A program made the translations under genes and the position numbers. The notes under the pieces are model-generated. The model was not told the DNA's origin and did not search any database. It was given only the letters and a program-made list of their open reading frames with translations. A stretch of DNA of 64,000 nt from Psilocybe cubensis (lineage: Eukaryota): contig CM039003.1 of assembly GCA_017499595.2 (NCBI GenBank), positions 3,224,001-3,288,000 of the forward strand, given 5' to 3'. Within the stretch, counting starts at the first letter, position 1, and each line of letters opens with the position of its first letter. Below are positions 1,475-53,252 of this stretch, piece by piece.

Positions 1475-1493
1475 CACTGCGGGCGCCGACCGC

Positions 1494-8757: not shown

Positions 8758-9434
8758 ATACAAAGAGCTTCACGCGCGTGCAGAGCGCATAACCTGCGCG
8801 TGGATATGACCGTTCCGGGGTATGAACGTGCTCCTTCCGTGAGCTGACCCGCCTCTCTGACTCGTCTACCAGCGCCATTTCCACCAGCTCCAATGTCACT
8901 TGTGCCGTTTCATCTTCCATCAGCACCGTATCTGTTGGAAGAAGACTTGAAGCCAGTGACTCACTACGCTCTCCGCTCCAATGCTATCTGATTCACGCAT
9001 GAATATGAGTGTGGGCTTGCCTGGTCGGCTGCCCGTGATATATTGAACAATTTAATAACGAATTAATCTAAATCAAATATATCAGATTCTTGCAAATCAG
9101 ATTTTGCGATACAGATCCGTCCAGAGATATACGTATTACAAACTTCAACTTACCTATGACGAAGTATGATTCAGGACCTGTATCGTGACCGGCTTAACCC
9201 CCGCAGATTGAGCAGCGACCAAATAACGTGCGTTTGAGTGGAAGATTATCGTGTTGCTCAGTTGTCGAGACCCTATCGTGTAGATTTCACCCCGACCTTG
9301 CCCTTCGACCGCAGATTCACCTGTTCATGGAAGTGAGCCGTGGGCACCGATGTCCTGGAATGATCAGAACGAAAATTTCTGCTTACCTCTCGTGAAAGGG
9401 ACGCATGCGACGGGCGACGGCTTTTAAACCAGCC

Positions 9435-11443: not shown

Positions 11444-12310
11444 GATGTATAAGTAGGTATAAGTAGACAGATAGGATAGCACTGTGGTGTACGGGCAAAT
11501 GTGGCAAAATGTTTGATTTGTGGGGTGAAGGTACTTTTATTCAAAGCCTGCCGTGTCTTGTCTTTAAGATTGAGTACGTCGTGTTGCCTTTCAGCTCACC
11601 GGAGATATGCCTAGCGCTGGATCCGCCTTTCGACACAAGCGGGTCATCAACGAGACGACAGCGTGTTTGTTTCGTTTATTCTCTCACCCGGGATCCCTTT
11701 CACTATCACTATACAATCCGAGCTTTGTTATTTTTCAGTTATGTTTGGGTGGGATGCTTTAGCAGACTTCAGTTTCTCTCACTCTACTAGAAGAAGTAAT
11801 CTAACTACAGGAGTCGCTGAAACTACGTATTTTTTACAGACTGTCGGGTCGTGGTGGAGGAAGAGCGAACCGTGCGAAAATGCTTGAACGAGAATATTAT
11901 AGTGCACAGATTTCCATGCCGCTTCGGCAACTCGCCGAAGCGGCATGGAAATCAACACGGTATATCAATGCTGGCGCGCGACCGGACCACCTTTCCGACC
12001 TTCTTTGTTCATCTCCTCGTCATGGGGAAACATCGTCTTCCTCGATGAAAGAGTTCTTTCTGTATAATTTGTAATTGTACCCTTTCTGAATCAATAGACC
12101 TAATAGATCAGTGTGAAAGCAATCAAGCAGTCCTCCGCAAAAGCCGTTTGACGCGTAAAACACGCCCACAGCGACTTGATAATGCCTGTGTGCTATCGAC
12201 TGTGCGTATATTTCAAGCCCCTCGCCATCCTACCCTTCTCATATTATCAATTCACCACCAACCTTTCTTAGACGCTCTTTTCTGCCTCCTTTCAACTTAC
12301 TCGTACGACC

Positions 12311-14416: not shown

Positions 14417-14967
14417 TTCGCATTGCCTTGTACTTATCAAGAATTTCCCCACAGCGATCACCGATACCCCCTGAGAAAATATCTACCTATTCGGAATTGA
14501 CACCCCATCTCCAATATATGCAACAACATCAACGTCAACGATCGGAGGAAAGATAATCTCGAGCAAGGGTATTAAGTTCCTGCGCCATGCTTCCTGTTCT
14601 AATAATTCATGAGTTTGTAACAATGTCAGAGTCACTGGTTCTATTTAATTTTACCGCGACTTTCTATGAACGAATGCAACCATAAGGGTTTATGTGAAAA
14701 AGTCTCCCCATAAGTTGCACCTTCAACTGAAAATAATTCTGTATTGCAGGCAACTTACTTTATTTGAATGTCAGGTCGCGTAGAAGGCGCGTCAGGCCCG
14801 CATTAGGGTCACGGACTGTCTCGTGAAGATCTTAATGAATAGTTTAAAGTCCCGAACGTCTATCTCTTTGTTTCGTATGTCCTTTGTGTTTTAAACCTCG
14901 AAAGTGTTTAAATAGGCTAAGATCTAATGTGAAGCCAACTCCCACCTCGTTCCACCCATCCACCATC

Positions 14968-15539
14968 ATGGGCATTTTATGCTTCGCTGTCACAACGCTT
15001 GTCGTAGGCACCATGTTGGTCGGCATAGGCATTTTAACACACAATGGTTTATGGTTCTTTCTCGCGCTTTTTTCACCCATGACGTTGCTCGCTGTGTTCA
15101 CTTTTTACGATTATTACACGGTTGTCTACAACCCTTCTCCACACCTTTTAAACCTCAATAATTTGAGCTCACGCCCTGCCCCATTATTGCGCTCCGGACT
15201 GCGAAGCGAACGTCGTTATATCGTTTCCATGCCAGTATCTGTCAATACAGTCCGCAGCCTCCTCGACGGTTCTTTCGCTAATTCATATACGCCGACAACT
15301 GCCAATATTCTGGAAGCAATCGACCATATTTGGTCGCAAAACGACATAAACATCATGGAGGTATGCAGTTTTTTTACGGCGTGCTACCTTTGAATCTTAA
15401 AGTTCTTGCAGAGAATCCATGGACTTCAAAACCCTTGTCGATATCGCTTCCTCCATCGATCGGGCCAAAATATATATCTCGTTACAGACGTCGACCCGTA
15501 CGGTCCTTCCGCCGAGACCTCGCGATTGGGTCCTCGTGA
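14968..15539 (+). CDS. Small membrane protein, paralog A
   Basis: Hydrophobic N-terminus; ILEAIDHIWSQNDINIME, intron, then PWTSKPLSI..YISRYRRRP; paralogous to the gene at 31305. Confidence 0.55.
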
Positions 15540-16160
15540 ATTGGAATATTACTAGGACAGGACTCCAACCTGTTCGTATATTTTAACTGCTTGTTCACCG
15601 ATTCTGTTCTGATTACCTTGTAGTGCGGAATGTGCAAAGGCGTTCCAGCTTGGCAGTAGCATCTCGGTTATTCGTATATCTTCGCACCCAAGTTCCACTC
15701 ATGCTTCTATTTTTTTTCTTCTTTCCTCAGTCTCATCTCGATACTTAGTCCCGCAATAATGTTTTTCTTGTAAATCATATTTAGTTTTGGCTCTATGAAT
15801 ACTTAGTGCAATAATTTTCCGTTGTGTAAAGTTCACTGCATACGCAAATAGACATCCATTCCTAGGTCGGTTTAATTGTTTTTGCGCGCGACGGAACCCA
15901 TGGCCAACGCGCGCGATGTTTTGATGCCGATCAAGACTAGAAAGAGCGTTCAAACCTGGAGATGGCATGGAGATGGCCTGAGAAATAATGTTACTCGCTC
16001 AGTGACGAAAGAAAATACGCTCATAACAAGAATTAAAGGTAAATTGATCGGAAAACAAACTTTCAAGCTACTGATAACATGGACCACGAAACCGCTATAT
16101 TAGTCTAAGTAGAAGAATTTTGATATGTAACAATTATGAAAAGTTGCGCGCCACGAAATG

Positions 16161-19100
16161 TTAGGTATAGATTGCAGGATTCACCTCGTCGTCCTCCCCT
16201 GGAAATGGTTGAGCGGCCTGGGGGTCTAGCAATCGTAGTTCAAGGTCGGATAAAGTATTCAACCAGACCGGATTGTAGTAGTTTATGGGGAGTCTAGTTG
16301 GGGCAGGCCTCGTACTGTAATTTTGCCCTTGCCTTAACCGCTGACGGACATCAGGTTGACCTCCGGGGCGCCTACCACCATATGCAGTCGTGGCTGGCAA
16401 AGCATTATCGGCATCCGTCACGGTGTTCAGTAGCCGTGGATTTCGCCAATATAATATCCTAACGCTTCGGATTCCGCGCTCTTCAGAATCGCTCTCGTCG
16501 GAACTCATCCCATCATCTCCTAGCGTCACAATGGTCCGCGCATGATTTGGCATGTTCGCCTGTTGAGCACTATCAACACGGGTCTCATACAGCTGCAAAG
16601 TAAAGGCCGTTAGAGCAAGGAATTCGGACTAACTTGATAGCTTACTTTAGTCTGACGACGACGAACCCGCTTAAACCGGTCGCGTCCCTCTTTCTCCATC
16701 AACAGTCTATTTCCCGCATCCTGTTCAGTTTCATCCCCCCGTGGCATGGCGTTGGACATGTAATCCCTTAGAGTAGTGAGACGCCGAAGGAAACATTGTT
16801 CAATTTCTTCCTCTTGCCCCCGATATTCTGGATATTGTCGCACTAAAGAATCTGCAAAGAGGTTTGCCATGTGACGGTTCCATTGTGTGTTGACTCTGTC
16901 AAAATACAACTGGAAAGGTGTCATCGTCGGAGGATCTCGTCGTCGGCGCTCTAAACGATCCACTTCAACCTCGTCGGCGATGTGAATATTATCAAGATCG
17001 GAGTAGATTTGGCTGTCACGATGATCTGCAGGGAGATCGAGACATTTGCGCAGATGTAGGCGCACTGCTTGCTAAAAATTCTGGGCTTAAGTAAAGCATT
17101 GATATATAGGTAGTAAAAACTATACCGTCAACTGTGTGCGGTCAATTGTACGAGGCCTAGCTGGAGCCTTCTCTTTGAAGGGAGACTTGACTTTCGTAGG
17201 CGTCTGACGTACTCTGGGTCCTCTTCCGTTTGCCAAATCATCCCGCAAGCCGTTGACACTGGCAGTCATAGTTTGTATACATTCAATCAGCATGTTATCG
17301 GTATTGGGTCGTGGCGAAGGGTGCTGATCATCGTCTGAAGGCATATTGGGAGCCGTAACGGTCGAAGTCGGATGCCTTGGCGTGTTGGCCATCGGAGGAG
17401 CCGGCTGAGCAGTGGCAGGAGATTTTGCGCGCTGGGCACTGGCACCAGAGCGTTCTGCGTGCCGAGCTTGATAGGCAGCGAGTTGAGGATTTGTACTGGC
17501 ACCAGAGCGATTTGCATGACGCACTTGATAGGCAGCGAGTTGAGGATTTGCAGTTGAGGAGTTGGGAGGGACAGATGTGTTAGACGTTCGCACTTCGGAG
17601 GCCGAATGTCTTGGCGTGGTTGGCGTGGTAGGCATCGCTGGAACTGTACGATCAACGACAGGACTGACAGTAGGGCGGGTCGCATGACGAGCTTGATAGG
17701 CAGCACGGTAAGGATCATTCACCGCAGAGGTAGCAGAGGTAGGCGCTATGGTAGAGTTTGAAGCGGGAAGGCGCCCTAGCCGTTGCATAGCAGCGGCAAA
17801 GTATCGCTCTGTTGCTGACTGACCTGTAGGAGGGATAGGGGTCGCGCGGTTAGAATCCCTGCGTCTTTGAGATGGTGGAATTGTGGTATATCTTGTAGGA
17901 AAAAAACCCGGAATTATATATCGCCGAGGTGATGCTGATCTTGGAACAGGTCTTTGGTGTGTTGTCCCATCTTCCATATGTTCGTCGTCTGAGTCCAGCG
18001 GGGGTGACGAATTGGGAGCTCGAGGCGAATTCCGGAGCGGAGAACTATCTACCATTTCGTCATCTTCATCCCTCGAGGCTTCATTTTGAGGAGGATTTGA
18101 CGGTGGAACAGCTGATTGTCCGCGCTGGGCAATCTAAGATACCTCGTTAGGATCAACAAGATCACCACATACATTATTGCGTACTCGTGAATGTATAGAA
18201 AACCCGGCATTGCGCTTGTTGATCCCAATCTAGAAGACATCGAGGTAAATTATTAGGTACTACGTACGAATGGATTGTTTAACATACCAGCCTCCGCCGG
18301 GCATCCAACCTCCTAATTTCCGTTGGTTCATAATCATCCTCAGTATTGTGAGTTCTGTTCTTCATAACTGAATTAATGCGAGCCTGCAAAACCTTGGAGG
18401 TGTGATCAGAATCGAAGATTGACAAGGAGGGGAACAGATTTACTTCATTCTTAATTCGTTCGTTCTTTAATATGTCCTCCAACGCACTTGTCGTGTTACC
18501 GAATTCGGTATTGCTTGATTCCAGCTCGTTCAAGCGACCTTGATTTGCCTGACATTGTTGTGCCAGATTGGAAACTTGGAGACGCAGGCTGGACTAATAA
18601 TGATACCTTATCAGTCGGATTTGTTGAGGCATAGGCTAAACTAGAATCCTACCACCGTATCCTCGTAAGTGGCCTTCATTTGATTCATCTCGGCCTGTGC
18701 TCTGTATCAGCAACAATGCCATGATTAAAGATTGACAGACAAACCATTCGGTTAGTTTGCTCTGCTTTCAGAGCGTTCTCGGCGTCCGCTGATTTTTGTT
18801 GATGGAGATCCATTTGGGACTTGAGATCGCGTTCGAGCGCATGATACTGTTTCTGCGACTCCTCTCGCTGGTTTTGTAATTGTGCTGTAAGGCGGGTTAT
18901 CTCGTTTGACGCAACACGCAACCGTTCATTGAGGCCCGTGATAGTTTGTTGATCTTCCACACGTGTCGTGTTTGCGCGCTCTAGCTGTTGTTGGAGAGCA
19001 TTGATTTGGTCCTGTGCGTGTGCTGCACTTTGCGATGTGTTGAGATTTGCAATTGTCGAATTCGCGTCCCGGAGCTGTTGCTGAAGAGAGTTAATTTGTT

Positions 19101-21057
19101 CCTGTGCAAGGGCCGCCGTATTTTGTGAGGCACTTAAACTTTCAATCCTCGAATTTGCTGCCTGGAGCTGCTGCTGTAACGTTGCTGCTGCACGTTGCGA
19201 TGCGTTGAGATTTTCAATTGTCGAATTCGCGTCCCGGAGCTGTTGCTGAAGAGAGTTAATTTGTTCCTGTGCAAGGGCCGCCGTATTTTGTGAGGCACTT
19301 AAATCTTCAATCCTCGAATTTGCTTGCTGGAGCTGCTGCTGTAACGTTGCTGCTGCACGTTGCGATGCGTTGAGATTTTCAATTGTCGAATTCGCGTCCC
19401 GGAGCTGTTGCTGAAGAGAGCTAATTTGTTCCTGTGCAAGGGCCGCTGTATTTTGTGAGGCACTTAAATCTTCAATCCTCGAATTTGCTTGCTGGAGCTG
19501 CCGCTGTAACGTACTGACTTCGCTGGATTTCTCTTGCTGCAGACGAGCGATGTCGTTTTCTAAATCTGAGATTTGTGCGAAGAGTTGTTGACCTCGCGAA
19601 GCAACCGCAGCTTCGAGATCGGCATTCGTTTTCTCGTGACGCTCCTGAGCTTCAAGACGCTGGCGGTCGTATGCTTTAGATAAGGACTCTGCACGCCGAA
19701 GTTTGATCAACGCTGACGAGAGGTCGCCTTGTTGAGTTTTAACAGTTTCTTCAAGCCCTTTGGAGCTCTCCTTCTCCGTCCGCATTGCCTTCGACAGCTT
19801 GGTATACTGCGAACGTACAGCCTCTACCTCCTTTTTGCTCCTTTCTGCTTTCTTTTCAGCATTTTTGATGGCATTCTTCGACTTAGTTAGCTGTACGATG
19901 GTGGTAAATACGCAAATCTTGCAACATAGGAAATAAATTAACATACTTCCGCTCGTTCATCATCAATGATTTTCTTGAGCACCTCTTCCCTCTGCTTGAT
20001 CTAAAAAAGCAATGAATACATAAATGACAAGAAAAGTAGATTTTGGGTAACGTGCCTGTTGCTTGCTCAGCTCTGCGATGTCGACGTCTTTCTGTTCGAT
20101 GACTTGGACTTTGGTGGTATGGTCTTCCGGTGCAGCTCGTCGTTTCTTCGCCTTAGACTGGTTAGACTGGTTCGGATCACTTCTAGTGAAATTGAACAAA
20201 TTTCCAGACAAAACGGGTATAAAAAACCGTGGAAATGTAGAGGTGCTACTGGGATTTGACGACGTAGGTAGTGTAGGATCAATGTCCATAGACGTTTCAG
20301 GGTTCGGAGGAGGATTAGTGTTGGCGGAAGACTCGTTCTGTCGGAAATGTCCAGGAAAAAGCACGTCGGAAGACCCAATCCGTGGGATATGTCCAGCGGA
20401 TGGCCGAGAGACACTATTCGCAATGGAGGATCCTTGGGCACCCCGAACATCTGTAGCAAACCGGAAAGGCGCCTGATCGATCGAACTAGCGCCGTTGGTG
20501 GGCTGAGAAACAGAGGGAGCAACACGATCTGGGACGGAAGATCCTTGGGCTCCCTGGTCATCTGCAGCAAGCCGGGGTGGTAAGAGAGTAACCGCATTTA
20601 CAGGAGCTTGATTGGTCAAACTAGCGCCATTGCTGGGCTGAGAAACAGAGGGAGCAACACGATTTGGGACTGAAGATCCTTGGGCTCCCTGGTCATCTGC
20701 AGCAAGCCGGGGTGGTAAGAGAATAACCGCATTTACAGGAACCTGATTGGTCAAACTAGCGCCATTGGTGGGCTGAGAAACAGAGGGAGCAATGGAGGCT
20801 GTACGTGCACCGTGTTCATCTGCGGCAGGTCCGGGTGGAGGAATTGGAAAAGAAACCGCTACATTAGAAGGCGTAGCGTTGGACAAAGTAGCTCCAGCTC
20901 CTCCTTGTTCTACTTGTTCTAGACGTTCCGTCGGGTAATCAGGTGATGTGTCCATTGAGGAGGGTTCTTGATCAGTGGAAGATCCAGTTGCCGAAGGAGT
21001 AAGTAAGGCCACGATCCTCTCCTTGAGGGGCAACGTTTCCCGTCGGGTGGACGACAT
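16161..21057 (-). CDS. Large multi-exon protein: low-complexity N-terminus, repeat-expanded coiled coil, Pro-rich linker, C-terminal LGDDGMSSDES/YWRNP domain (element core)
   Basis: Successive minus-strand ORFs (19963..21129, 18685..19944, 18279..18533, 17120..18055, 16610..17065, 16161..16598) are separated by short GT-AG introns. Could be two genes. Confidence 0.7.
19037..19512 (-). repeat. 165-bp coding tandem repeat (55 aa, ~3 copies)
   Basis: aattgtcgaattcgcgtcccggagc recurs at 19051, 19216 and 19381. Confidence 0.95.
20485..20792 (-). repeat. 135-bp coding tandem repeat (45 aa, ~2.3 copies)
   Basis: ggctgagaaacagagggagc recurs at 20501, 20636 and 20771. Confidence 0.9.
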
Positions 21058-21261
21058 GGGTATGATACTGAGGATGCCTGCCTTCCCGAGGTCACCTTTT
21101 GTACACTCAGATGGGGGCTCTTTATTCAAAAACTCTTTGTGAATACCGGGAATAAGGAAACAAAGAGGGACTCACCTAAAAGATAGCAGCCAAACCGTAT
21201 TCGCGCCTCATACTTTCCTCCCTAATTACCGCCACATCCACCTCCATACTTTTTCGCCGAC

Positions 21262-21827
21262 ATGGTATCATCGTTGATGACCTTCCGGTCGACTACAAGG
21301 GTGAGATGAAATCGAAGTTTATATGAATAACGACTCACTTCGACCAAGGATCTCCATATGACCCTTAATGCCAGATATTATGCGGTCGATGCAAACCGTG
21401 CTGTAACGAAGAAAATACACACTCTTGCAAACGCGAGCGGGAGGAGTCCTAGACTGGACTTATTGATGGGCGGGAAATCGCTGCAGCCACACATACATGA
21501 CGGCGTGGTGTCGATCGTTAACAAAGGGCGGACTACACGCTTTCATATCTTCGTTAAGAATCACAAGTTTCTGCCTCGCAACAAATCTCTTAGACGCTGG
21601 GGAAATGCACGATGGAGAGGGGATGTCGTCGTGTTCCGCAAAGGTCTAAGTCTGGACCTCGTCAATTTCACCATACGGGATGGGAAGTTGGCTGACCACG
21701 CAGTGAAGAGGTGAGCTGGCGATACTGAGAGTATAGAAGAACGCTAACAGTACCTAGGTTTGTGGAAACTGTTCGCCAACAGCCAAGGTTCCGCATCCCA
21801 AAGGACCTCTCCTTCACAATGCCCTGA
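21262..21827 (+). CDS. Small basic hypothetical protein with WRGDVVVFR motif (element core)
   Basis: Three exons around ORF 21358..21714 with GT-AG introns, ending ..KDLSFTMP*. Confidence 0.65.
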
Positions 21828-22427
21828 GCGACTTCTGCTCTATCTGAGCGTCTTCTGCTCTGTTTCCTGTTTTTTCTGTTTCCTGTCTTATTTTGGCGGT
21901 TCTCCATCGTTCCGACTTTCGTTCGTTTGTAAACTAATTTGTACACATATTTACGATCTACTGTAAATATATTTACTACTACTTACGCACTGAGCGACAT
22001 GGTGTGTTATGGGTGGAAAGAGAACGAAACCGTGAGAAAATGCCGACCACGCCATGATGAACCCCCGGAATTTTCAAGCCGCGTTGCCGAGGAGAATACC
22101 GCACGCGATAATCGGCTTGAGCGGCTTGAAATTCCGAGGGGTACATATTGAGCTACTCAACATATTCTCACGCTTTCTCTTTTCCTCAACGTTAACGACA
22201 GCCTTGAGTAGCAGAACCATAGGTACGTTTTTAAACAATGTTGGTATGAAGTTAGCTAGAGGTGATGTACGTGAATAACAAAAAAAACAAAAATACATGA
22301 GTTGAACGAGTCTCCACCTACGAGCACAATAAGAAAATATGATGCGATCGTGTCTTAATAACGACCAGCTGATGACCACACAGCACAAGCAGTGTAGCGC
22401 AGACCAGAGTGTTTCGCGAAAATCGCA

Positions 22428-25149
22428 ATGAAGAAGGTATGTCATGATTCCTTGATATCTTAATCCGTTTAGGTTAGTAACATTATTACAGATAGATCCC
22501 AGAATCCGCCAGTTCCTGGACACCGAAGCTCAAGTTGACGACGAAATTTCTGAGGAAGACGAACAGACGGGATCCGGAGAAATAGATAGAGAAGGTGAAT
22601 ATTATACTTCAAACACATTTACCCTACTAATATAACCCTTGCCATTGAGATGGATTCATCGACGATGATACACCCCCGGATGTTGGGCATTCCGTTCTAC
22701 CGACCCAGTTATCAGTTCATAGGCATACCGAGGGAGCATTAGAGCGCTTGATTTCGCGCATCGAGTCCAGAATCAATGCCGCGGGAGATGGGGGATTCGC
22801 CATTCCTGAAGATCCAGACGATACACTCCATGACAATGGTTTGTTGTACATACCTAGGGCGGATGATTATCCACTGTGGCGGGTTGAATGTAGAGTGCGT
22901 ACCCTACCGTTATTGACACTGGGCGTTCTAAACTGAATGGATCTTCGCAGGTTGGTATTGAAGAACAGGCTGTGATGTCTCTGCTCAGCACAGTCTCGGA
23001 AGTACATCAGGTTCGTTCCGCATTCACTCGAGGATCAACACAGGGCAGTATCTATATCGAATGTAAAATGAACCAAGCCCTCGTCGACCTTCTTCTACGG
23101 ACACCAGGTGTACTGCGTAACGGCTTGGGTATCAAACGACAGCTCATCGACTCTTCAGAGTATAGTCAAGTGCTTGGGATGAGGGATGGTCCCGTGGACG
23201 TCGGTGCATGGGTAGTCATCAAGAAAGGCTTGTACAAGGGAGACGTTGGCGTGGTTTCACAAAAAAGTTTTCAACATGCCCGTATTCTCCTCATTCCTCG
23301 GCTACATACGACCCCACAGAACCCCCTCAAGCGAAAATCATCGACTGTTAAGCCGGCTGCTAAGCTCTTCGATCCGGATCACTTTCGACAGCTTTTCCCA
23401 ACCGACGTGCAGAGCCGTGGGCCTGATTGCTACTGCTTTCGCGATATGGACTTCGAACAAGGGCTTCTGGCCCAAAATTTGGACCACCGTTCATTCACAG
23501 TTAACGTCAAGGACATACCCCATGACTTCTACACCATGTTTAGAATGAGCCAACACCCAGCAGTTAATCGCTCGCATATGCCACGCCCGCGCGAATGGAC
23601 TTTGAAAGAAGGCGACGCGGTTCTCATTTGCAGCACCCCTTCAACCTCTACGTCGTTTTTTGCCCCAGCTATCTTGAAGGTTATGGATACCTACTATGCG
23701 GAAGTCCTCGAAATAGGGACACACGGTGTACCTCTAGCCGACAACCCAACAAAACGTGTGCCGTGGCAAGAAATCAGGAAGGATGTTAAAATCGGACAAC
23801 ATGTTTGTGTACGGGGTGGACATCATACTGGCAAGACAGGCTGGGTAGTTGCTCTCAAAGATGATCGAGTTCATTTTGTCAGCAAGAAGTTTGAAGGTGA
23901 AATACCTACTTATTTTAGGGATGGTGACGAGGTCATTGAAGTGAGGTCTCCATTTTGTTATTCGTTCTACTTTTGCAACTCTATTGGCTTACTTATCTCT
24001 TGACAGTCAACAGAGGTTTTTGTCAACTTTGTAGACATTGCAAAGGAGCCCGTCGTGCTGCACCACAAGCACGAGCCAGAACAAACTGCCATAATCCCTT
24101 ATGTGCGCCAGCCAGAATCTGGTCCCCTTCCCAAGACGCCTCCACATCCATGGTGTGGAGTAAAAGTGAAGATATCTAAGCAGCACCATCCTCGAAAAGG
24201 CGAATACGGAGTAATTCAGGATGTCAAGGAAAATCTCGATGACAATACTATAACGTTGCACATGCAGTTGACGCGATACGACCCGAATGCCCCATTTCAC
24301 AGAATATCAGTCCGTTACGACGACGTCGTTGAATTTGCGTAAGCGCATTCCATCTCACACAGGTCATGCAACACTCATTATTTTCAACGTAGATCTTCTC
24401 TTGAGCTCGTCCTGTTCCTTGATCCCGGTGAGGGTCATATTCGACCTACCCCAACGCAAACTTTGTCTACGCCGCAACCCGAGCAAGGTCATGATACATC
24501 CGCCCATCACCCTTATCTGATGGAGAGGCCGTCTGGTAGTGCAACGCCCCTTCCGACACCAGCACCAAATAATTTGTCTTCTCCACCTAGTCCAGCTTGG
24601 GACCCCTCTTCGAGAACTCCGTTATCTGATTCCGTGGCGTCTGATCCATTGTGGATGCCTCCAGCACCACCCCCACATGTCCTCTTGAACCCAAAACTCG
24701 TGGGAGTTAAACTGAATGCTGTAGTTGACGGCGGAGATTTTTCTAAGCAGCTAATTGCAGTGTCTATCGAGCTTCATGGCAACGAGGTTGTTCTCCGACA
24801 TAAAAAATATCACACATGGATTTCATTAGAACCCCGTTGGGTCACCCCTAAATACCCTCATCCAATTCACGACAACAACCTTCTCGTCGTCATAAAAGGA
24901 GATCACAGCGGCAAATACGTTCGTCGCATTCATCACCGACTAGATCAGCTAACCAAGAAAATCAACATTATTCTATCCGTTGTGGCCAGGACCGTCGGCT
25001 CGCCTGATTCCTTAACTGGCGAGCAATTGGAACTCGATCCGCAGTTTCTTTGTACTGTTCCCGAAACAAAGAAAGAAAGAGAATTGAACTGGCGTGTCAT
25101 GAATACAACGCGAGCTATGCATAATCGCGGACCTAGTCAAAATCAGTAG
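22428..25149 (+). CDS. Divergent Spt5/NusG-like transcription elongation factor paralog (acidic N-term, NGN, multiple KOW, short CTR-like segment)
   Basis: QFLDTEAQVDDEISEEDE (Spt5 N-term); LWRVECRVGIEEQAV..RSAFTRGSTQGSIYIEC (NGN); VGAWVVIKKGLYKGDVGVV..LLIPRL (KOW1); KIGQHVCVRGGHHTGKTGWVV (KOW); SGSATP..SPAWDPSSRTP; LVVIKGDHSGKY (C-terminal KOW). Confidence 0.85.
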
Positions 25150-25404
25150 TGCAATGTAACTAGTCCATCGTGTACCAACTTTTTGCGGATTTTATGTCTC
25201 TTAATTTGCGTACGTATTTCTTGGGTGTTTTTTCGGTGTTTTTTTTGTGTAGCGACATGTGCCAAATTTAATAAAGGCAAAGATGTTTATCATCAAGTAC
25301 ATGCGCAAAGGCCCAAATGGGCGTGTCGTTAAACAAAGGCAAGGTATATACATATAACACACGACGCGATACGGGCAGTTAGTTTTCCTCCACCAATTCT
25401 ACTC

Positions 25405-27126
25405 ATGTCGAACCGCAGGACAAGAAAAACAATCCACGATGCCTTGAGGAACAGGCAGAGTCGCACCACCAATATCAATCATCATCAAGATGCGTCACCT
25501 GCGCCAGGGCGTAATTCTGCAGAAACCTTGGACGTAAGTTTCGATTTGGTGCTTAGAGCGATGACTGACTGAGATTATCTCTCAGCTCGACGAGCTGCGG
25601 CCCTTTGGAAACGCGTTGACCCAAAGCGAGGTGGGTTACGGCTGCCTGTATATTTTCTGCATGATTTGGCAAGATGTTAACGCGAATGGCAGGATCTGAA
25701 TATCATTTCAATCCGCAATACTAATCGCCGAAGCCACAGAAATCTCCATTTACTCCCAGACAAAGCCAATCCTAGTCCCCGACGCCAAAGAAGCGTCCAT
25801 GTGATGCCAGACAGAGCCAGGACGCCCCAAATTGCTTTGGAGCACTCCGACATCAGCCTTGTATTTTAATTTCGATTGTCTTTCATACGGCAAAACCTGA
25901 CACGGTTCTTAGCCCGATGATGCACCTATGGATAGTATCAGACCAGTAAGCATACATTGTTGTTGTCCTTAAACGATCTCACATTTTTCGCGCCACAACC
26001 AGGATGTTCTTTCTGCTGTCGTCCCCGAGATGGTTAACCATACCCGCGAACCTGACGGAAATGTAAATCATGTCCGCATCCGTGAGCTGGAGGTAGAACT
26101 AGTAAAATGTCAAGAGCAGCTAGCGAGAGCTTCGGATCGAAACAATGAATTGGAATCAACGCTGATAGAAAATCAACGCACATTACAGAATCTTTCTGAC
26201 ACAATTACTGTAGTAAGTTGTATTTGTCCTAGTTCAACATCATACCTTCCTAACATCTGGGAACATTTGAAAGCATAAGAATAATGAAGATAACTTGCAA
26301 AAGCTGAATGACTCTTTGGGTGACAAACTGTCGGAACGGGAGAAAACAAACGGCGAACTTGAGTCGGTTCGTCATTATATTTAACATATTACCGTATAAA
26401 GTTGACCAAGTTGACGGACTACCTTTGCAGAGGAACAAAGTGTTAACGAGTAGGGCAGAACTATTGACTACAAGAGTAAAGGAATTCAAGAACGAAAACA
26501 CGCGTCTTCAAAAGGTAAGGTTTCCATCTTGTCATTCAGGCAGTGTGCTACTAATATCAAGACTGCAGTCAATCGATAACATGGAGGCGAAAGTCGAAGA
26601 ACGGGAATATCTTGACATTTATATAAAGGTGTGTTTGATTCTTAAATTCCAGTTGTATCCTTACACAAGCGTTCAAACTTTAGAATCTCCGCCATTGTTA
26701 TGAGAAATGTCAATCTGACTTGAAAAAATCGCATGCAGTGAGTCATGTCGAAATATTTTATGTGCTCTCTGAATGTTTCATAGGAGTCAGCCGAGCTGCA
26801 GCGTCAAGTTGAAGCACTTCGCAAGTTATGCGATGTCGTCGTCCAAAATACGACTTGCCCAATATGCACTTGCCACATAGATATGCCGGTAATGTATGTT
26901 TTTCCAGCGAATCATTGCAATACCGAAGATAATGCTCATTACTAATATCTAAAACAGGTTGACTTGCGGTCACTTTTTTTGTTCGAGCTGCCTTGAAGCA
27001 TGGGACAATAAGAAGGGATGGAAGGGGGGCTGCCCATATTGCCGCATGGACATTAGCCGAAGGATTACTGCACTGCCAGTTTTCAACCAAATTCTGGACG
27101 CGGTTCCAGTCGAATACCGATCTTAA
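25405..27126 (+). CDS. Multi-exon coiled-coil protein with C-terminal C3HC4 RING finger (putative E3 ligase)
   Basis: Spliced last exons read TCPICTCHIDMPVMLTCGHFFCSSCLEAW..GGCPYCR; preceded by heptad-rich exons (IRELEVELVKCQEQLARASDRNNELE). Confidence 0.8.
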
Positions 27127-27254
27127 CGATTTTTATATATTGTGAAATGGATATCATGCGTGCTTCTCCTTCCCGAGAAGCTATTTCTTAATACTCCCGA
27201 TCTCTGTGACTATAAAGTAGCATCAATTTTGGTACTAGACGTTATCATACCATC

Positions 27255-30200
27255 ATGCCCCCTGCAATAGGCGATCGACTCTGCATATGTAAAGTCCACG
27301 GGTGCTACGATAATGTGGACCCAGGAACTAATCGAAGGGGGAAATTACTTAAACCCAGGGACTTCAGAGCACATCAGCGACGCCAACAAGAAGAAGACCT
27401 AAAGCAACAGCAACGCGCCTTGGATGTACAATCAAAAACTCTCGCTAAGCATGATCAAGCCATTGAAGAAGCGTTGAGTCGTCTATCACTGTCGGACCCT
27501 CAATCAATTCCATCGTTCACATCCCAATTATCTGATTCCGATTCTCGCTTCGAAACGAAAAAGAGAGTGGCAGCTCAGCTTGGTGGCCTGTTGGATGAAA
27601 CAGACGTACACAAACGAGGGATAGAAGCTCTGCAAGTTAATCCCGGACCTCTCACCGACTCTGCATTACTTGGAGGACTGGATAAGTGCTCCTCAGCATA
27701 TGGATTCATCGAAAGATCTGCGACAGTGCTGGCCACAGCCAAACATTCGGCGATCCGAAAGGATCCTTCTATCAAAACACTCATCGATAATGCGCAAATG
27801 CAGCTCGGCCTACTTCAGCATGATCTCAAGCGAATCGAAACTCTCTATAGGAAGGAGTTTGGGAAACGCGAAACAGTTGCCGCCTCGACTCCTATGTACA
27901 ATTCAGGTAACCGAAAGTTCATTCGATATGGTTCTAGGCTAATATTTATGGAAAAGGACGACATTTTAAGCCCATCCTGGAATCCGCAACTACCATCTTG
28001 CAGTTGGTTGCATTCATGGTCGTGTCGGTCCAAGTTATTTTTGGCGTTCCTCGACGGGGTTGCCATTGGATTTTTCAAATTTCCGAATTTATCATTGAAC
28101 AAACAGCCTTCAGTGCCTTGGGCTCTTCCAGTCACTCTACCCTTCCGAACAAAATCAAACTTCTCCTCTCCAAATTCCCTCGCGACGTTCGTACGGCGAC
28201 GAGCTACTTCAATATCGATGCGGAAAGCACTGTTTATGCAGCATGCCCCAAGTGTCACGAAATTTATCCGCCAAAATTGGAGTCTGGCGTTCCCATATAC
28301 CCAGAGAAGTGTCGTGCACGTAGAAGGCCTCACAAGCAAGGTGGCCCTGTCAGGTCCTGCAGAGAATTGCTAGTTCGCCCAAAACAGTTTGGGAAAGCCA
28401 CCATTAACGCTCCAATAAAGCCATACATTGCCTTCAGCTTCCATGACTGGATGGCCAATCTCTTATCACGCCGCAATTATGAGAAGACGATGGATTCAGC
28501 ATGGGATAGAATGCAAGAAAACGAAGGCGATATCGAGGATATTTTCCAGGCGACATGCATCAAAAACTTCAAAGGACACGACAAAAGGACGCATTTCGGC
28601 AAAATCGGCGACAAGGACTCCGGGAGATACTTATTTTCTCTTGGATTCGATTTCTTCAACCCTCTGAGGAACTTGGCAGCTGGGAAAAAGGTGTCAATTG
28701 GCGTCATCGCGCTGATATGTCTCAATCTTCCTATCGATATCCGCTACAAACCTGAGAATATATTCCTAGCGGGTATTATCCCTGGCCCTTCTGAGCCAAG
28801 TCTGGACGCCCTTAACCCGTACTTGCGGCCTTTGGTCGACGCACTACTGCTATTCTGGGATGGAGTTCGCTTTTCAAAGACGGCTCTTTACGAGCTTGGG
28901 CGATGTATATATTGCGCTATCATTGCTATTATCGCCGATCTTCCTGCTGCTCGAAAAATCGGAGGTTTTTCCTCACATAGTCACGAATTCTTCTGTTCAG
29001 TTTGTACTTGCAGCAAAACCAAGAACACTTACAACGACATCGACTATACGACCTGGACATGGCGCACCAACGAGTCCTGTAGAAATCGTTCGGAAAAATA
29101 TCGCAATGCACAAACTCAGGACCTGGCGGATAGATCCTTTGACTTGTCAGGACTTCGCTCCTCGGAGTTGCTTCGTTTGCCGTACTACGACGCAACCAAG
29201 CATCTTCCCATAGATCCAATGCACAACCTATTTTTGGGTTTGGTAAAGGAACACTTCCAAAATATCTTGGGATGCAAGAAGATTCCGATGGGTGGTCTTC
29301 CCGAATCTGCGGCCCATGCAGGCCGTCTATTTGCTCACGATGCCAATAATTTGGACCCCGATCGCTTCAACGTCCAGCAAAAAGCGAGCATCAGACGCTT
29401 GGAAGGATGGCTTAAGGAGCCCTTTCTCCATGGATCGGACCTACAGTCAACGATTGACAAACATGCCAAACATTGGGCTGGGAAGGGATGCCACCTGGTC
29501 TCCTTGATCTACATTGGCAGAGGACTTGGATGCATCCCGAGCACTGTTACCGAGAACGGGAGGGATTCCCGTGATCCTGATAAGAGGTATCACAAGCCGG
29601 AGCTGGCAAAACTAATAGTGGAATGGGTTCGTTGCACGCCTTTTCTCAAGATCATAAATCTGATCAATTTTACCGTTGTCTTCGCTTTTTCCTTAGCGAT
29701 CAAGACAGCCAATAGTACTACCGGCCTCCGTCACCTCTCCTGGACTAGCCGGCAGGCAGGGATATATATTGACCTCGCAGGAAATGGACGAATTGCGACG
29801 AGATATCAGCGCGATAGTGCAACCATCATGGGCAACCACTATTCCTATATCAATCTCTTCCTCTGGACCGAAGTTAAAGTCGGATCAATGGCGAGCGGCG
29901 GGATCTGTTTACCTCCCAATTACTCTCATACGCTTATGGTCCTCAGATGGGACAGACACTACCAGCCAGGAACGTCGAGATCTCCTCAACATGACGATGG
30001 AGTTATTCCAAGCCGTCTCCGTCATCACTTCGCGGACAACCTCTGCTGCACATGAAAGGTTGTATCTTGGGCATATGCTCACGTACCGTCAAAATTTGGC
30101 ACGTTTATTTCCTGACTACAATTGCCATCCCAATCACCACATGGCAATGCATCTTGGGGAATTCCTTGCGGCGTATGGGCCTGTTCATGGATGGTGGACG

Positions 30201-31004
30201 TTCCCTTTCGAGCGTATGATTGGGACACTGCAACAAATACATACTAATTACCATCCTGGTAAGCCGTCAATCATAGAACTCTCATGCTCTACCTAACAAT
30301 ACGTGATAGGCGAGTATGAGGCTACGATTGGAGAATCGTGGCATAGAAGAAGCAATCTTAGGGCACTGTTTTCCAAGGTCACCTGCCCTCCTATCATTGC
30401 CAAGTGCGCTTCAATGTTCGAGAGCATCGTCCAACCTCAGAATCAAAATTTCCTTGCAAACTACGCTACGGACAAGGTGCAGGCGGTTGGAACCGACGAT
30501 CAAGATACAGATATCATCCTTGACAATAACCTGTATCGCGACAGACTGGAGGTTGAACTTCCCGACAACATTCTCAATGCATTTACAAACTTCTTCCAAG
30601 GCAGCGCTGAGCTGGTATCTACTCGTCATATTCGTGCAAACTTAATAAATCGATATACATCGGGCCGCATTTCATACACCAGTTCTTCCATCCATGAAGG
30701 AAACAGTCAGATTCTGACACCCTCGGGTCCGTATTGCATCCAGAACATTGTAGTGTTCCGCAAGCCACTTCTATACGACGATGTCTGGCTTGTCGCAAAA
30801 CCATTTCGCGCTGCAAAAATCAAGGTCGACCCCTATATGCGGTATCAACATCTTAGAGCAAAAATATGGAGCAACGAATTGGAGGAATTCATTGAGGTCA
30901 TTCCCTTGTCTATGGTTGATACTCATTTTTCCAAGTGCGTCATTCAATGGGAAGGGAAAGAAGTTGCCGTTTGTGTAAGTTTATCTCGAGTTGTATCCGT
31001 TTAA
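27255..31004 (+). CDS. CACTA/EnSpm Tnp2 (Transposase_21-like) DDE transposase, apparently intact
   Basis: Motifs FDFFNP, CLNLPIDIRYKPENIFLAGIIPGP, DLPAARK, FCSVC, IDPMHNLFLG, HHMAMHL, GPVHGWWTFPFERMIG. Three GT-AG introns join the four ORFs in frame. Confidence 0.93.
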
Positions 31005-31304
31005 TAGATTTGTATGTACGATTACGATTTTACGACCTTTACGTGAGATCAGATCTACCCATAACTTACACTGCAACAGCTCGCTTTAATTCACTCACTG
31101 GTCGCGTAGGAGGCGCGTCAGACTCGCATTTGAGTAACGGCCAGTTCCGTGGGGTACTGACCCGCTTAAACGGCCCGAATCGTTTACCTCTTTGTTTCTA
31201 ATGAATCGTGTTATTTAGGCCTTTGTTCTTTATGTTAAAAGCCTCAAAGACGCTTAAAAGGACCAACGCGAAGTCAACCTCCAACTCATTCCACCCCTAC
31301 CACC

Positions 31305-31802
31305 ATGCTTTCTCCCATGCTATTTCTCATAGTCAAGCTATACGACACTTTTATCTTTTTGATATCTGTCCTCGTTACTTTATTCTTGGTTCAACTTGTT
31401 CACGAGGAATATCATAAATGGTTCGACTATTCACCGGATTCCTCTCCAACCTTGCGTTCTGCACAACATGTCCAACGTCGATCCACAATCTCGAGGCACC
31501 TATCTATCCCTACCTTCCACATCCACCTCCGTATTGCTGTTCAGCCGGCAACAAGGAATATTTTAGAGGCACGGGACACTGTTATCTGGTCGCAGAATGA
31601 GCTGAATATCATGGGGGTGCGTACGTTGATTAAATGTGTATTATCATCTCTGAATCCTAGCTTATAGAGGGTTCATGGAGTTCGAAACCCCTATCGATAT
31701 ATCTTTGTTCACCGATCTGTCAGCGGCCGAATTATATATCTCTTTACCGGCGTCGACCCGAACAGCCCTTCTCCCCAGACCTCGGGCTCACATTACCTTG
31801 AA
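31305..31802 (+). CDS. Small membrane protein, paralog B
   Basis: Hydrophobic N-terminus; NILEARDTVIWSQNELNIMG, intron, then SWSSKPLSI..YISLYRRRP; matches paralog A. Confidence 0.55.
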
Positions 31803-32955
31803 ATTGAATTAAATCGCTAGGCAAGAGTCCAGCGGGTTCGTATTTCATAACTAATTATTCACTGATTTATTCTGACTACTGTGCCTTTGTAGTGCAGAAT
31901 GTGCAGAACGTTTACTCGATCCAGTGTAGCAGAAGCATCGTTCTGTTATTCGTTCATCTTCACGCCCATCCTCCACTCATGGTCTCTTTTAATATCTCTC
32001 CTTCTTGTTCTTTTGGTTCTCTTTATCTCGATTCTTAGAACCTCGATAATTTTTTTTTCGTATAATTCATGTTAACGCCAGTGATTTTAAGTTTTAATGC
32101 CATTTCCTATGCAAAACATACTAGTACGCAAATACTTGAGATTCATTCCCAAGTCGGTTTCATTGTTTATACCTGCAAGAGCATATTGAAACGATGAGCG
32201 CGCGATGATCATAGAAGGGACGATTTTCATGCCGCTCAAGCCGAGAAAGAGCGTGCAAATATGGATCAAAGACGGCAGCAAAAACACACCGGAAAGACAC
32301 TATGCCGTATTGAAAAACCGACGGCATGAAAATCCTTGTCACTTATCAAGTGCACTGAAGTGACTGTGACAACTTTCCGCTCTTAGCATGAACCCACACT
32401 CAGGCACGATGGTATCACCTAGGATGAAGTACGATACGTAGTGTAGAATGATTAATACAACACACCTTGCGCAGTATTATAGGACATTTGAACCTTTTAG
32501 AATGTAGTTAATGTCCAACAAATGAGTATATGAAGTAGAGCGCTCCCTTGTATTGTCAGCGTGTAGCATACGCTTTGGAGTTGGAAAACATGAAGAGTAC
32601 TACTGCACGAAAGTCAAGTGAGTGTAATTTTCCAAGCAGAAGCATTTTCCGTTTTAACCTATAGCTACGATAACCCAGCTACGACACCCCGAAGCAAAAG
32701 TTGGGGATGACAGGCCAGCAGTCTCTCAGAGACTGCTGGCCTGTGTTTCGTGTTTCGACAGCCGACCCTGTCTCCCTGTATCTCAACCTCTGCAAGCTGA
32801 GTAGCACTAGGCCACTTTGGTAAGCAATTTGTCTTTGGAAGCATTTCACTCTCAGGCTTATTAGAATGTTAGTGGCTCGATGTGTTGTCCAGCATGTCGA
32901 CTCTTCGACCGCCAAAGGTTTACAATTGTGGTAGGAACTCTCTGGGGAGAAGAAC

Positions 32956-33330
32956 ATGGATGACGTCGACGTGTCGCGAATCATGCACGAGGAGGCGAGG
33001 ATTGAAATTGCTCCTCCCATGCACCCCGGAGCAGCTCCTCTTTTCCCTCCCATCTACCACCAGGAACAGCTCAGACAGCTGGAGCAGCTCTACTTCTTCA
33101 GCAGGCGAGCAGCGTACTGTTTCATCCGTCCCTTTCACGAGTGTAAGCAAATAATTTTTGTTCTGATCACTACACATCAATTAACACCTAGTAACACAGT
33201 TTCCGGATATTGCTACCCACAGCCCAGTCCCATGGGCAGGTGAATCTGCGGTCGAAGGGCGAGGTCGTGTTCGAAGCCGCCTCGAACTACCTTAAGACAA
33301 CCATTGACGGGATGGACACGGGATGAGTGT
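32956..33330 (+). pseudogene. Hypothetical spliced gene or relic overlapping the right arm of the inner inverted repeat
   Basis: ORF 32956 with a GTAAGC donor near 33142; 33124-33268 has an inverted counterpart at ~9290-9410. Confidence 0.35.
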
Positions 33331-34260
33331 GTTACGGAACACATCGTCGACTCGACAGCTCGCGATGGTTCTGGGAGTGATAAGGTGGGTGTACAGAACA
33401 CTTCAACACTGGCATAGCATGGTCAAGTCCTTCTCTCCAATCAGAATTCAAGCGATTTATCATTGAGGCCAGCTTCGTTCGTGTTGTGGCCATACAAAAG
33501 TCGTACGAACATAACGACGAAATAACGATGCTGCCTCATTACGAGTATTGACCTTTTCTTGATGGCGATTCCAATGTACTAATTCTTCCTGGGTTCATGA
33601 CAGAAGCCAACGACGCTGGTGTTTTCAACCTATACACCGACACTATCTGCGCGCGCCCTGAAATTCCATATTACCGTGTAACACACACCTCGCACCATTG
33701 GTACCCGACAAAGAATCTACCTGAACATCCTCCAAGAAGTAAATAAGTTCAAAAGATCGAGACGAAGAGACGAAGATCGACACTTCTGATGACATGGAGG
33801 AACATGAAGGTCCCCAGTTTGACCTATCATCTATGGAATTCTGCTAGCATATCTCTCAGGTCTCAAGATAAGTCGTACTTCACACGTTCATCTGCGGTAC
33901 TGGGTTGTGACAAGACTAAGGGACAACTCTACAGGACCCAAGACCTACAGACGTCCATTCTCTGGCCTCGTTCGTATCTGGGCTGGCACGATCCACGCGC
34001 TGGGTGCTCCTGGTCTTCCGGGCCGGCTGGATCCGAACACGCTCATAACACGCTCAGCGTGCGCCGAACAGGAGACTTGTACCCTGATGCGCTCATCTGT
34101 ATTATCCGGCCTTATCCAGCGGGACTTTCACATATCCTACGTAGCCGCATTGGGACTGTTGCCTGAACGCCATTTCCAACACTGTCTGCACCGGTGAGCT
34201 GAAACACTATACTCGACGCTTGATGTCCCAGGAGACGCGCGAGTAGAAGAATGAAGAAGT

Positions 34261-34460
34261 CAGGTAGCCCTACCTACTACAATACACGTCCAAGCCACGC
34301 GACGAGCTGCTACCTCTTCTTCCGGCGTATGGGGTACAAGGTTGATCTCAACAACCACGTCAGGTAGCCCTACCTACTACAATACACGTCCAAGCCACGC
34401 GACGAGCTGCTACCTCTTCTTCCGGCGTATGGGGTACAAGGCTGATCTCAACAACCACGT
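34261..34460 (+). repeat. 100-bp near-perfect tandem duplication
   Basis: 34261-34360 matches 34361-34460 with one mismatch noted. Confidence 0.95.
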
Positions 34461-35304
34461 CGTGGCGCACATCCACAACCTCCCTCGCAACGCTCAAGGG
34501 GGATTTCACAGACACCATCGTCGGTGTATGCGAGGTGCGTGGTCTTTCCTGTTCGATATCATTAACACCATTGCTCATTTATGACTTGTTGGCTTCGCCT
34601 TTGCACTCGCACTTTCTTTTTTGATAGATGAGAGGTAGAATATCAAGACTGTCGACGCTGTGCAAGTGCTTCCCTGCGGTGGTTCGCCGGTGCGACGTCG
34701 AGAGGTTCTTGAATATCGGAAGATTGTACCCTGAAATTGATCCCCCGGAGAAACGCATCGATATGCACATTGACTTGTTAAGGCGCGGTGAGTTTAGGGA
34801 TATGGAGTGTGTTAATGACATCGTCAAGTATGTTTAAGATGTCATCACCATATGAACCTCATTACTGATCATTGAATTTCATTTCTTTATTTAGGATAGA
34901 AGCGCAATCTGATCAGCTTGCAGAGACGTACTTTGATGGATTCGATACTGACCTTGCGCGCAAGTTGGTATATGTGACCGCGTTTGACCACAACTTGGAC
35001 AGACGGTTTTGACTGTTAATGTCGAAGCTAAATGGACGGTGTCGTCGTTCAGCGACGAGATACAAGGTCTCGCGCGGACAATACGTACGAAAGACCAAAT
35101 GATCCAGTAGTCGACAGTAAAGATCGAGCTGATGGAGCGGTGGCTGGAGCGGTGAAGAAGCAGGCGGACAATTGGCCAGTCGAGGAAGCAGGAGCTAGCG
35201 TATGAGGAGGCGATGGCGATGGAGCAGTTACAGGCGGACTTTGACACGCTGGAGCAGGATAATGCCAAGTTAAAGACGATGGCGGCTGGGCAGGAGAGGA
35301 AATG
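34261..35304 (+). pseudogene. DCTN1: Captured, internally deleted fragments of dynactin p150Glued
   Basis: CYLFFRRMGYKADL..HNLP; RCDVERFLNIGRLYPEIDPPEKRIDMHIDLLRRGEFRDMECVNDIVK; MEQLQADFDTLEQDNAKLK. Introns retained; frameshifts. Confidence 0.75.

Positions 35305-52288: not shown

Positions 52289-53252
<964 letters not shown>

Follow-up and report, generated by a model that had tools for sequence, protein, structure and literature searches.

Does a gene with the domain order of the elongation factor Spt5, lying 2 kb upstream of a transposase gene in the mushroom Psilocybe cubensis, serve the host, or does it belong to mobile DNA? The gene is located in a 64,000-nucleotide stretch of contig CM039003.1 (assembly GCA_017499595.2, positions 3,224,001 to 3,288,000 of the forward strand), hereafter the window, which is numbered from its first letter. 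A first-pass annotation of the same DNA had described it as a transposon-borne paralog of Spt5/NusG. Its product, P0165, is a true Spt5 homolog in sequence and fold across the full length, and the gene is not the housekeeping SPT5. It probably represents a large, fast-evolving, mushroom-specific family of Spt5 paralogs that are carried as accessory cargo by cut-and-paste DNA transposons, here one of the EnSpm/CACTA type. The two genes in question are:

22428-25149, plus strand: Spt5-like gene; exons at approximately 22428-22436, 22492-22594, 22647-22898, 22952-23941, 24005-24340 and 24392-25149, supported by coordinates, Pfam, PDB and fold searches
27216-31004, plus strand: Tnp2/EnSpm (CACTA-type) transposase gene with PF02992 and DUF4218, apparently intact

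The Spt5-like gene begins with an ATG at 22428, ends with a stop codon at 25147-25149 and contains six exons separated by five introns of about 50-60 nucleotides each. It encodes an 811-amino-acid product with no internal stops, and its description as intact was therefore correct. Residues 4-811 of P0165 match the window letter for letter in the blocks 22492-22593, 22649-22897, 22954-23940, 24007-24339 and 24394-25146, while residues 1-3 (MKK) are encoded by ATGAAGAAG at 22428-22436, with gtatgt next. The acidic motif FLDTEAQVDD, recognized in the first pass, occupies residues 11-20 of an acidic start in which D and E make up 18 of the first 60 residues. The acidic N-terminus is followed by the NGN domain (residues ~110-195), KOW1 with a linker (200-330), KOW2-4 (340-460), a KOW5-like domain (500-560), a disordered segment with one PAWDPSSRTP (582-650) and two beta-barrels (660-805). 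The PAWD motif, of the type found in the C-terminal repeat region (CTR) of Spt5, is present once, at residue 627, and the long CTR array has no counterpart: PAWD occurs 0-2 times in the nine family members checked, with two copies in subfamily 2 (see below). The single CTR-like remnant and the terminal KOW noted earlier were thus both recovered, the latter as the C-terminal KOW-like segment LLVVIKGDHSGKYVRRIHH.

Profile searches against Pfam identified the NGN domain (PF03439) in spliced P0165 with 28.6 bits against a gathering score of 22.4, and KOW (PF00467) in the main exon with 24.5 bits against 22.3; each was matched in 20 of 25 family members. The third domain proposed for such a search, Spt5_N (PF11942), stayed under its gathering score (17.3 versus 24.2 bits), although its FLDxEAxVD start still aligns to Spt5 of S. 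pombe, and KOW5_SPT5 scored 20.9-23.5 bits, under the cut-off of 27. A phmmer search of PDB returned 12 chains at E<=1e-8, every one of them Spt5. In the top match, S. pombe Spt5 8qsz_Y (E 1.1e-27, 99.5 bits), residues 7-448 of P0165 are aligned with 274-703, which takes in the acidic start, NGN, KOW1, the KRK...LF linker and KOW2-4. With a seven-member family profile the best PDB match, again Spt5, reached E 3.6e-42 (147.6 bits), and TPAWDPSSRTP of this profile aligned to the nonapeptides of the pombe CTR.

Structure prediction gave the same picture. The AlphaFold2 model, built from a 25-member alignment, has a mean predicted local distance difference test score (pLDDT) of 73.3, with residues 1-108 and 582-650 disordered and confident domains at ~110-195 (alpha/beta), 200-330, 340-460, 500-560 and 660-805. 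The top 24 Foldseek matches of the model were Spt5 chains from elongation complexes of RNA polymerase II (Pol II), with a best E of 1.4e-24; archaeal Spt5 and bacterial NusG were also among the matches. Separate domains matched as well, KOW1-linker to 4ytk (template modelling (TM) score 0.82) and KOW2-3 to 4ytl (TM 0.78), in agreement with the several KOWs claimed before. The motifs best kept in the 25 members are spread along the protein: FLD.EA.V, PLWRV.C, SAF...G.IY.E and KOW1 G.WV...G.YKGD.G in the N-terminal part, KRK...P..KLF, PRP.EW and the glycines of KOW4 and KOW5 further on, and PAWDPSSRTP (W in 24 of 25) and LLVVIKGEH.GK.VRRI.H at the C-terminus. The Glu of the IY(I/V)E motif, presumably the residue contacting Spt4, is retained in 18 of the 25.

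A family census by profile search of 1.84 billion representative proteins gave 2498 matches at E<=1e-3, 1419 at E<=1e-10 and 310 at E<=1e-30. All of the 150 matches listed score at least 172 bits, compared with the 147.6 bits that the best solved Spt5 obtained with the same profile in the separate search of PDB. Named members originate from 16 species, which we take to be all Agaricales, frequently with several members per genome and frequently on short contigs. They belong to Psilocybe (2), Flammula, Pholiota (2), Panaeolus (2), Lentinula, Armillaria, Desarmillaria, Hymenopellis, Marasmius, Collybiopsis, Stygiomarasmius, Tetrapyrgos and Dendrothele.

In P. cubensis, an exact-sequence look-up revealed at least 11 annotated loci forming three subfamilies. 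One identical protein is deposited under five accessions (P0004 once, P0165 and P0167 twice each). Subfamily 2 comprises five loci on five large contigs, whose proteins are 1-10 residues apart (98.9-99.9% identity) and are therefore distinct recent copies; subfamily 3 is represented by P0008 at one locus. Since the gene in the window is one among many copies, it is not the sole SPT5-like gene of the genome, and its earlier assignment as a divergent paralog was borne out. The extra parts of the long fused gene models P0016, P0093, P0104 and P0131 had no Pfam family, no further match in the window and no transposase ORF (open reading frame). Many family members bear the public names 'Transcription elongation factor SPT5' or 'Chromatin elongation factor SPT5'; these names probably present transposon-linked paralogs as the housekeeping factor.

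A link between the family and Tnp2 transposases had been proposed in the first pass. A metagenome scan yielded 55 family loci, 20 of which are non-redundant and extend 3.5 kb or more beyond the gene on one side; the near-identical groups were L001=L002, L008=L009, L024=L025, L027=L028=L030, L033/34/36=L035, L040/42/43=L041 and L046=L047. The flanks were surveyed with Pfam on 133 flank ORFs and by tblastn with transposase ORFs. A cut-and-paste transposase of the Tnp2, Plavaka or KDZ kind lies within 6 kb in 8 of the 20 loci, a figure that stands without a random-gene baseline for transposases near fungal genes on such contigs. The linkage to transposases is therefore recurrent, but it is not specific to Tnp2, since three kinds are involved. 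KDZ and Plavaka transposons were reportedly defined by Iyer et al. in 2014 (PNAS). Within each kind the arrangement is constant. Tnp2 is located downstream on the same strand in L028, L035 and L054 (3/3 groups), as in the window; Plavaka is upstream on the opposite strand in L016, L018 and L039 (3/3), and so is KDZ with CxC2 in L041 and L047 (2/2). Long terminal repeat (LTR) retroelements are found near the Spt5-like gene in L024 and L045.

Same-class identity, given as Spt5-like gene / transposase, is 42% / 35% for L016-L039, 39% / 31% for L041-L047, 36% / 32% for window-L028 and 26% / 31% for window-L054. Such deep divergence of both genes within a class is in keeping with a linkage of long standing. 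L027/L028 have inverted repeats of at least 963 nt (94.6%) that bracket the body of the Spt5-like gene together with Tnp2; within these repeats lie the promoter of the Spt5-like gene and its first, acidic exons, and the contig stops before the outer repeat ends are reached. The claim that the gene is transposon-borne thus gained one relative with long inverted repeats around both genes, while termini in the window itself were not found. L041 has a different organization, with inverted repeats of ~84-97 nt (99%) bracketing a ~3.5-kb unit that holds the Spt5-like gene alone; a target duplication was not seen at this unit.

Palindromes or truncated inverted 5' copies are located 330-450 bp upstream of the gene in L016 (arms ~890 nt), L041 (~250 nt), L047 and the window; the equivalent palindromes of L016, L041 and L047 are longer than that of the window. 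Two distant clades have the motif CACTTTCGCACGCYTTYCCT in their palindrome arms. Inverted, truncated copies that cover the promoter and the acidic first exons were observed at 8648-10444 of L016, at 4287-4795 of L041 and in L027/L028, head-to-head with the Spt5-like gene or at the far side of the transposase. If transcribed through, these copies would yield hairpin RNA against the Spt5-like gene; in maize, Mu killer produces hairpin RNA of a comparable kind. A DUF6698 ORF is present downstream on the same strand in L002 (4499-4888), L008 (3250-3666) and L016 (13598-13993) and may co-travel. No counterpart of P0168, of the ORFs at 25973-26703, of ORF 31239-31667 or of the minus-strand ORFs at 16161-21171, all described below for the window, was found in the 55 metagenome loci.

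The gene tree contained 55 rows, namely 34 loci and 21 named proteins; 21 loci were omitted as duplicates or as too short. A single clade of the four Tnp2-linked rows was rejected (p-AU, the approximately unbiased test, 1.2e-6), this group having been named after the tree was seen. Two histories would account for this: an ancestral association of the family with Tnp2, or transfer of the gene from one transposon kind to another, for which TET/JBP genes offer a reported precedent.

The transposase predicted downstream of the Spt5-like gene was confirmed on the same strand: PF02992 matches ORF 27938-30055 with E 1.5e-12. Its coding blocks are at approximately 27276-27920, 27938-29630, 29754-30257 and 30311-31004, and the lone in-frame stop falls in a GT...CTAAC...AG intron at 30258-30310. 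Because relatives align in three or four blocks without frameshift and the stop is intronic, the transposase looks intact. There are 596 relatives at E<=1e-20, the best of them 52-53% identical. Other features related to the putative element are as follows:

22026-22177, no strand: palindrome with 57-nt arms, its centre ~327 bp upstream of the ATG, detected by repeat search and folding
22100-22134, plus strand: left copy of an imperfect inverted repeat of ~35 nt (GCACGC...TCGGCTTGAGCGGCTTGAAA), a candidate inner terminal repeat
32222-32257, minus strand: right copy of this inverted repeat, ~10.1 kb from the left copy
21262-21711, plus strand: small upstream gene P0168 (134 amino acids, no Pfam family), annotated with the Spt5-like gene elsewhere
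25973-26703, plus strand: two short ORFs between the Spt5-like gene and the transposase, with sub-threshold coiled-coil Pfam matches only
31100-32265, plus strand: right sub-terminal region including ORF 31239-31667, with a diverged direct copy at 14774-15960
14774-15960, plus strand: diverged right-end fragment of a related element, collinear with 31100-32265

The ~35-nt inverted repeat, whose possible ends are 5'-CACGC at 22102 and ...GCGTG-3' at 32255, encloses the Spt5-like gene, the two small ORFs, the transposase and ORF 31239-31667. In P. cyanescens and at further loci of P. cubensis, P0168 is annotated beside the Spt5-like gene or as a fusion with it; this pairing would put the left border further left. 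Both right-end regions are related to the P. cubensis paralog P0008: ORF 31239-31667 resembles its N-terminal extension, and ORF 14848-15393 has 63-64% identity to its residues 17-91. The palindrome at 22026-22177 folds at -69.6 kcal/mol (z -8.5), and none of 200 shuffles equalled this value. A third gene in conserved synteny was considered and dropped, as the coiled-coil tail of the P. cyanescens homolog has no significant similarity to the ORFs at 25973-26703; its best match in the window, with E 1.4, is outside them.

Further repeats surround these features. The motif GCGGCATGAAAATC and its complement form hairpin pairs at 11909-11953, ~15919-15982, 22026-22177 and 32222-32334; two of the gaps between these hairpins are ~10.2 kb, and the pairs could be transposase-binding sites or the places where neighbouring related elements meet. 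Two blocks on the left side (8354-9422) are mirrored, in inverted order and orientation, at 33108-34227, and a tandem 230-bp duplication is present at 8278-8757. The blocks could be the ends of a larger unit of ~26 kb enclosing all features above; termini for such a unit were not found at 8354-9422 and 33108-34227. Another inverted repeat of 1.66 kb (97.8% identity) at 1475-3138 and 38753-40414 flanks 35.6 kb and contains ORFs without a Pfam match. On the minus strand, 16161-21171 is occupied by successive long ORFs, which contain low-complexity sequence and coiled-coil repeats in tandem (the repeated part being 19021-19512) and for which no Pfam family was found above the cut-off; this chain of ORFs and the small gene at 21262 diverge across ~200 bp, and it could be a host gene or element cargo. 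The distal part of the window contains two GH11 xylanase genes with CBM1, at 52047-53372 and 56188-57512, which are in inverted orientation and 92% identical, and a second diverged duplicate pair at 53924-55128 and 58565-59763.

Whether such genes are maintained by selection was assessed on the metagenome copies. The core ORF, from NGN to KOW3, is stop-free in 45 of the 55 loci. For 26 stop-free copies of the three best-sampled clades, the ratio of nonsynonymous to synonymous substitution rates (dN/dS, Nei-Gojobori) was calculated where 0.03<dS<1, which left 161 of 325 pairs; the median is 0.34, and the values span 0.24-0.57. The lineages are thus under purifying selection, constrained but loosely. 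At the locus of the window, comparison with isolates X8 and X9 showed eight coding-block differences among those listed, seven of them nonsynonymous; 26 further strain differences are outside this list. Among the seven are E15K, which alters the FLDTEA motif, and R265stop, which X9 carries at full contig depth. Neutral CpG transitions predict 62% nonsynonymous changes; the observed 7 of 8 fits this expectation (P=0.13) but not a dN/dS of 0.34 (P=0.004). Selection therefore acts on the still-moving lineages rather than on this insertion. The non-neutral evolution anticipated for the paralogs applies to the lineages, but not to the copy in the window, which fits neutral decay including a stop codon.

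C>T and G>A together account for 29 of the 40 strain differences listed; CpG is the context of 26 of these 29, although only 24% of C and G bases are in CpG. This excess of CpG transitions over 14.9-27.8 kb is the signature of methylated, silenced DNA, and it suggests that the whole 14900-27900 block, including the minus-strand gene at 16161-21171, is methylated. Most likely, the insertion in the window is methylated and silenced; it is still intact in this genome, whereas other genomes show it degrading. In one isolate, raw reads cover 14500-34499 evenly at 10-22x in all 30 bins, and two other isolates have single contigs extending from 20763 or 24876 to 34288 with word depth equal to the flanks; the stretch is therefore single-copy in these three isolates. 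A further run, X13, presumed to be RNA, gave a contig at 32872-33015 and none on the Spt5-like gene or the transposase, a result with no bearing on expression. In the isolate with raw reads, 5 of 12 molecules end at 15961 and 5 of 7 begin at 16097. Position 15961 is the exact limit of homology to the element's right end, and a heterozygous structural difference may be present here.

Several results weigh against transposon cargo. A cut-and-paste transposase is missing from 12 of the 20 flanked loci (two of them have LTR retroelements), and the 8 positive loci have the missing baseline noted above. What the copies have in common is often no more than the 2.7-3.1 kb of the gene, and their flanks differ. 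The genes of L035 and L041 are 79% identical in amino acids, yet they adjoin different transposase kinds, Tnp2 and KDZ, respectively, and transposase labels are unclustered on the gene tree (4 changes, with 102 of 200 shuffles as low). Proteins of P. cubensis are absent from the best 120 of the 596 transposase relatives. A 3-bp target duplication is absent at the uncertain candidate ends, and the window has no clean termini; since the flanks, CCG and CAA, are unlike, the candidate terminus at 22102 stays a candidate. Finally, the locus is single-copy over 20 kb in three isolates with no break at any proposed element end, and this depth conflicts with five annotated loci of the identical protein: either the reference strain amplified the element recently, or the assembly is redundant. 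Part of this evidence is shared by a different explanation, namely a host family of specialised Spt5 paralogs that arose by ordinary duplication in transposon-rich methylated regions, might serve non-coding transcription or transposon silencing, and has transposases as bystanders. Homology usually confined to the gene, three unrelated transposase kinds and two LTR retroelements nearby, the unclustered labels and a locus shared as a single copy by three isolates all agree with it, as does a match of the family profile to Arabidopsis RDM3/KTF1 (8hyj_W, E 2.2e-24). We nevertheless regard a host family as unlikely, because the orientation of the gene is fixed for each transposase class (3/3, 3/3 and 2/2, plus the window), long inverted repeats enclose both the gene and Tnp2 in L027/L028, and the five copies of subfamily 2 are nearly identical on five contigs. 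In addition, a dN/dS of 0.34 is loose for a host factor, a premature stop and a 7/8 share of nonsynonymous changes occur within the species, and the Argonaute hook of GW/WG dipeptides is lacking (one dipeptide in P0165 and 0-2 per protein in the nine members checked).

The gene-only unit of L041, the recurrence of a ~3-kb unit in varied contexts and the within-species decay of the window copy, which is consistent with neutrality, would also suit a host SPT5 that was passively captured or transduplicated and is now either useless cargo or its own small non-autonomous unit moved in trans. This origin appears somewhat less probable again than a host family: the full architecture and family motifs are kept across 24-57% identity, the core is intact in most loci, dN/dS is never near 1 in any of the 161 pairs, and introns are kept and spliceable. 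The best database match to P0165, with 100% identity, is named 'Transcription elongation factor SPT5, partial [Psilocybe cubensis]' at NCBI; taken literally, this name would make the gene an ordinary, merely divergent housekeeping SPT5. Such an identity is hardly credible in view of the number of loci and subfamilies in P. cubensis, the one CTR motif, the weak similarity to solved Spt5 (99.5 bits over 442 residues against S. pombe) and the R265stop that one isolate carries. Accessory cargo of cut-and-paste transposons, under selection in mobile lineages and decaying at this locus, is accordingly the explanation that we favour.

What such cargo could do may be considered from the biology of Spt5. 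In Spt5, NGN contacts Spt4 and the Rpb1 clamp, DNA and RNA are clamped by the KOW domains, and the CTR is a phospho-regulated platform for capping, PAF/Rtf1 and other factors. With a complete Spt5 body and the CTR reduced to one motif, the protein should be able to occupy the Spt5 site of Pol II while recruiting little. In an active element, the NGN domain of the Spt5-like protein would attach it to the Pol II clamp, as in Spt5, and the KOW domains would let it ride the elongation complex. Without the CTR platform, it could alter recruitment to Pol II on element transcripts, which might favour the element's own expression or blunt co-transcriptional silencing. A less likely use would be tethering of the transposase to transcribed DNA. 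The state of the Spt5 CTR influences heterochromatin in fission yeast, according to one study (PMC10659198). A bolder proposal, which we put forward as tentative, is that at least three transposon kinds (EnSpm/Tnp2, Plavaka and KDZ) encode their own Spt5, acting at the Pol II Spt5 site to shield the element from silencing or to secure full-length transcripts. It would be the first NusG/Spt5 factor of eukaryotes that a mobile element encodes, a counterpart to plasmid ActX/PrfaH and to transposon-borne TET/JBP; the conserved palindrome and the truncated inverted 5' copies would then be either element ends or a hairpin-RNA counter-measure of the host.

To our knowledge, Spt5/NusG is the only transcription factor common to all cellular life, and specialised NusG/Spt5 paralogs are a known route to privileged transcription of particular DNA. 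Bacterial NusG paralogs occur on plasmids, and the known eukaryotic Spt5 paralogs are host genes that help to silence transposons. A transposon-linked Spt5 family, if true, would be the reverse arrangement, with mobile DNA having its own polymerase-riding factor, and a second class of chromatin-directed cargo on fungal DNA transposons after TET/JBP. Such a family would combine two known kinds, the specialised NusG/Spt5 paralog and the transposon accessory gene. It raises the question of whether a CTR-less Spt5 affects pausing, recruitment of capping factors or PAF/Rtf1, heterochromatin formation and transposase targeting. For genome annotation, dozens of mushroom 'SPT5' entries are probably transposon genes rather than the housekeeping factor. 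A transposon-linked Spt5, KOW or NGN gene in fungi was not found in the literature searched, including PMC12730594, PMC5751038, PMC10799480 and PMC12062965, and Spt5, KOW and NGN are unmentioned in the paper on TET/JBP transposons (PMC12730594); the transposon-linked Spt5 family of gilled mushrooms is apparently undescribed.

Comparison with known systems places the family between several types of specialised factors. It has the same domain order and fold as canonical Spt5, the large subunit of DSIF, and a CTR-type TPAW motif like that of the S. pombe nonapeptide. In contrast to canonical Spt5, it is multi-copy, fast-evolving and transposase-linked, with one CTR motif (two in subfamily 2) instead of an array, and the gene in the window is dispensable, because one isolate carries a stop codon. 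Among bacterial paralogs, the NusG paralog ActX is encoded in pilus operons on resistance plasmids (PMC7819879), and PrfaH activates IncX conjugation via an ops-like site (PMC11880322). RfaH and ActX/PrfaH resemble the window protein in being paralogs of the universal NusG/Spt5 that are encoded by, or act on, horizontally moving DNA. They differ in being two-domain proteins recruited by the ops DNA element, with fold-switching of the KOW domain in RfaH, whereas the window protein is a full-length, multi-KOW Spt5-like protein.

Lineage-specific Spt5 paralogs with a link to transposon or non-coding transcription are known from plants (SPT5L/KTF1) and from Paramecium (Spt5m) (PMC3111484, PMC5416832). 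The similarity to SPT5L/KTF1 is seen in the above match of the family profile to the KTF1/RDM3 chain. Both SPT5L/KTF1 and Spt5m are single host genes serving silencing, unlike the multi-copy family considered here, which lies beside transposases and has no GW/WG hook. The closest parallel in genomic setting is provided by the TET/JBP genes located inside Kyakuja, Zisupton, Plavaka, EnSpm and other transposons of Agaricomycetes; they are reported to have moved repeatedly between lineages and are proposed to aid escape from methylation silencing (PMC12730594). Both are accessory chromatin or epigenetic genes, and the same transposase kinds adjoin the Spt5-like genes. The difference is in the process addressed: TET/JBP proteins act through oxidation of 5-methylcytosine, whereas the presumed target of the Spt5-like protein is elongation by Pol II.

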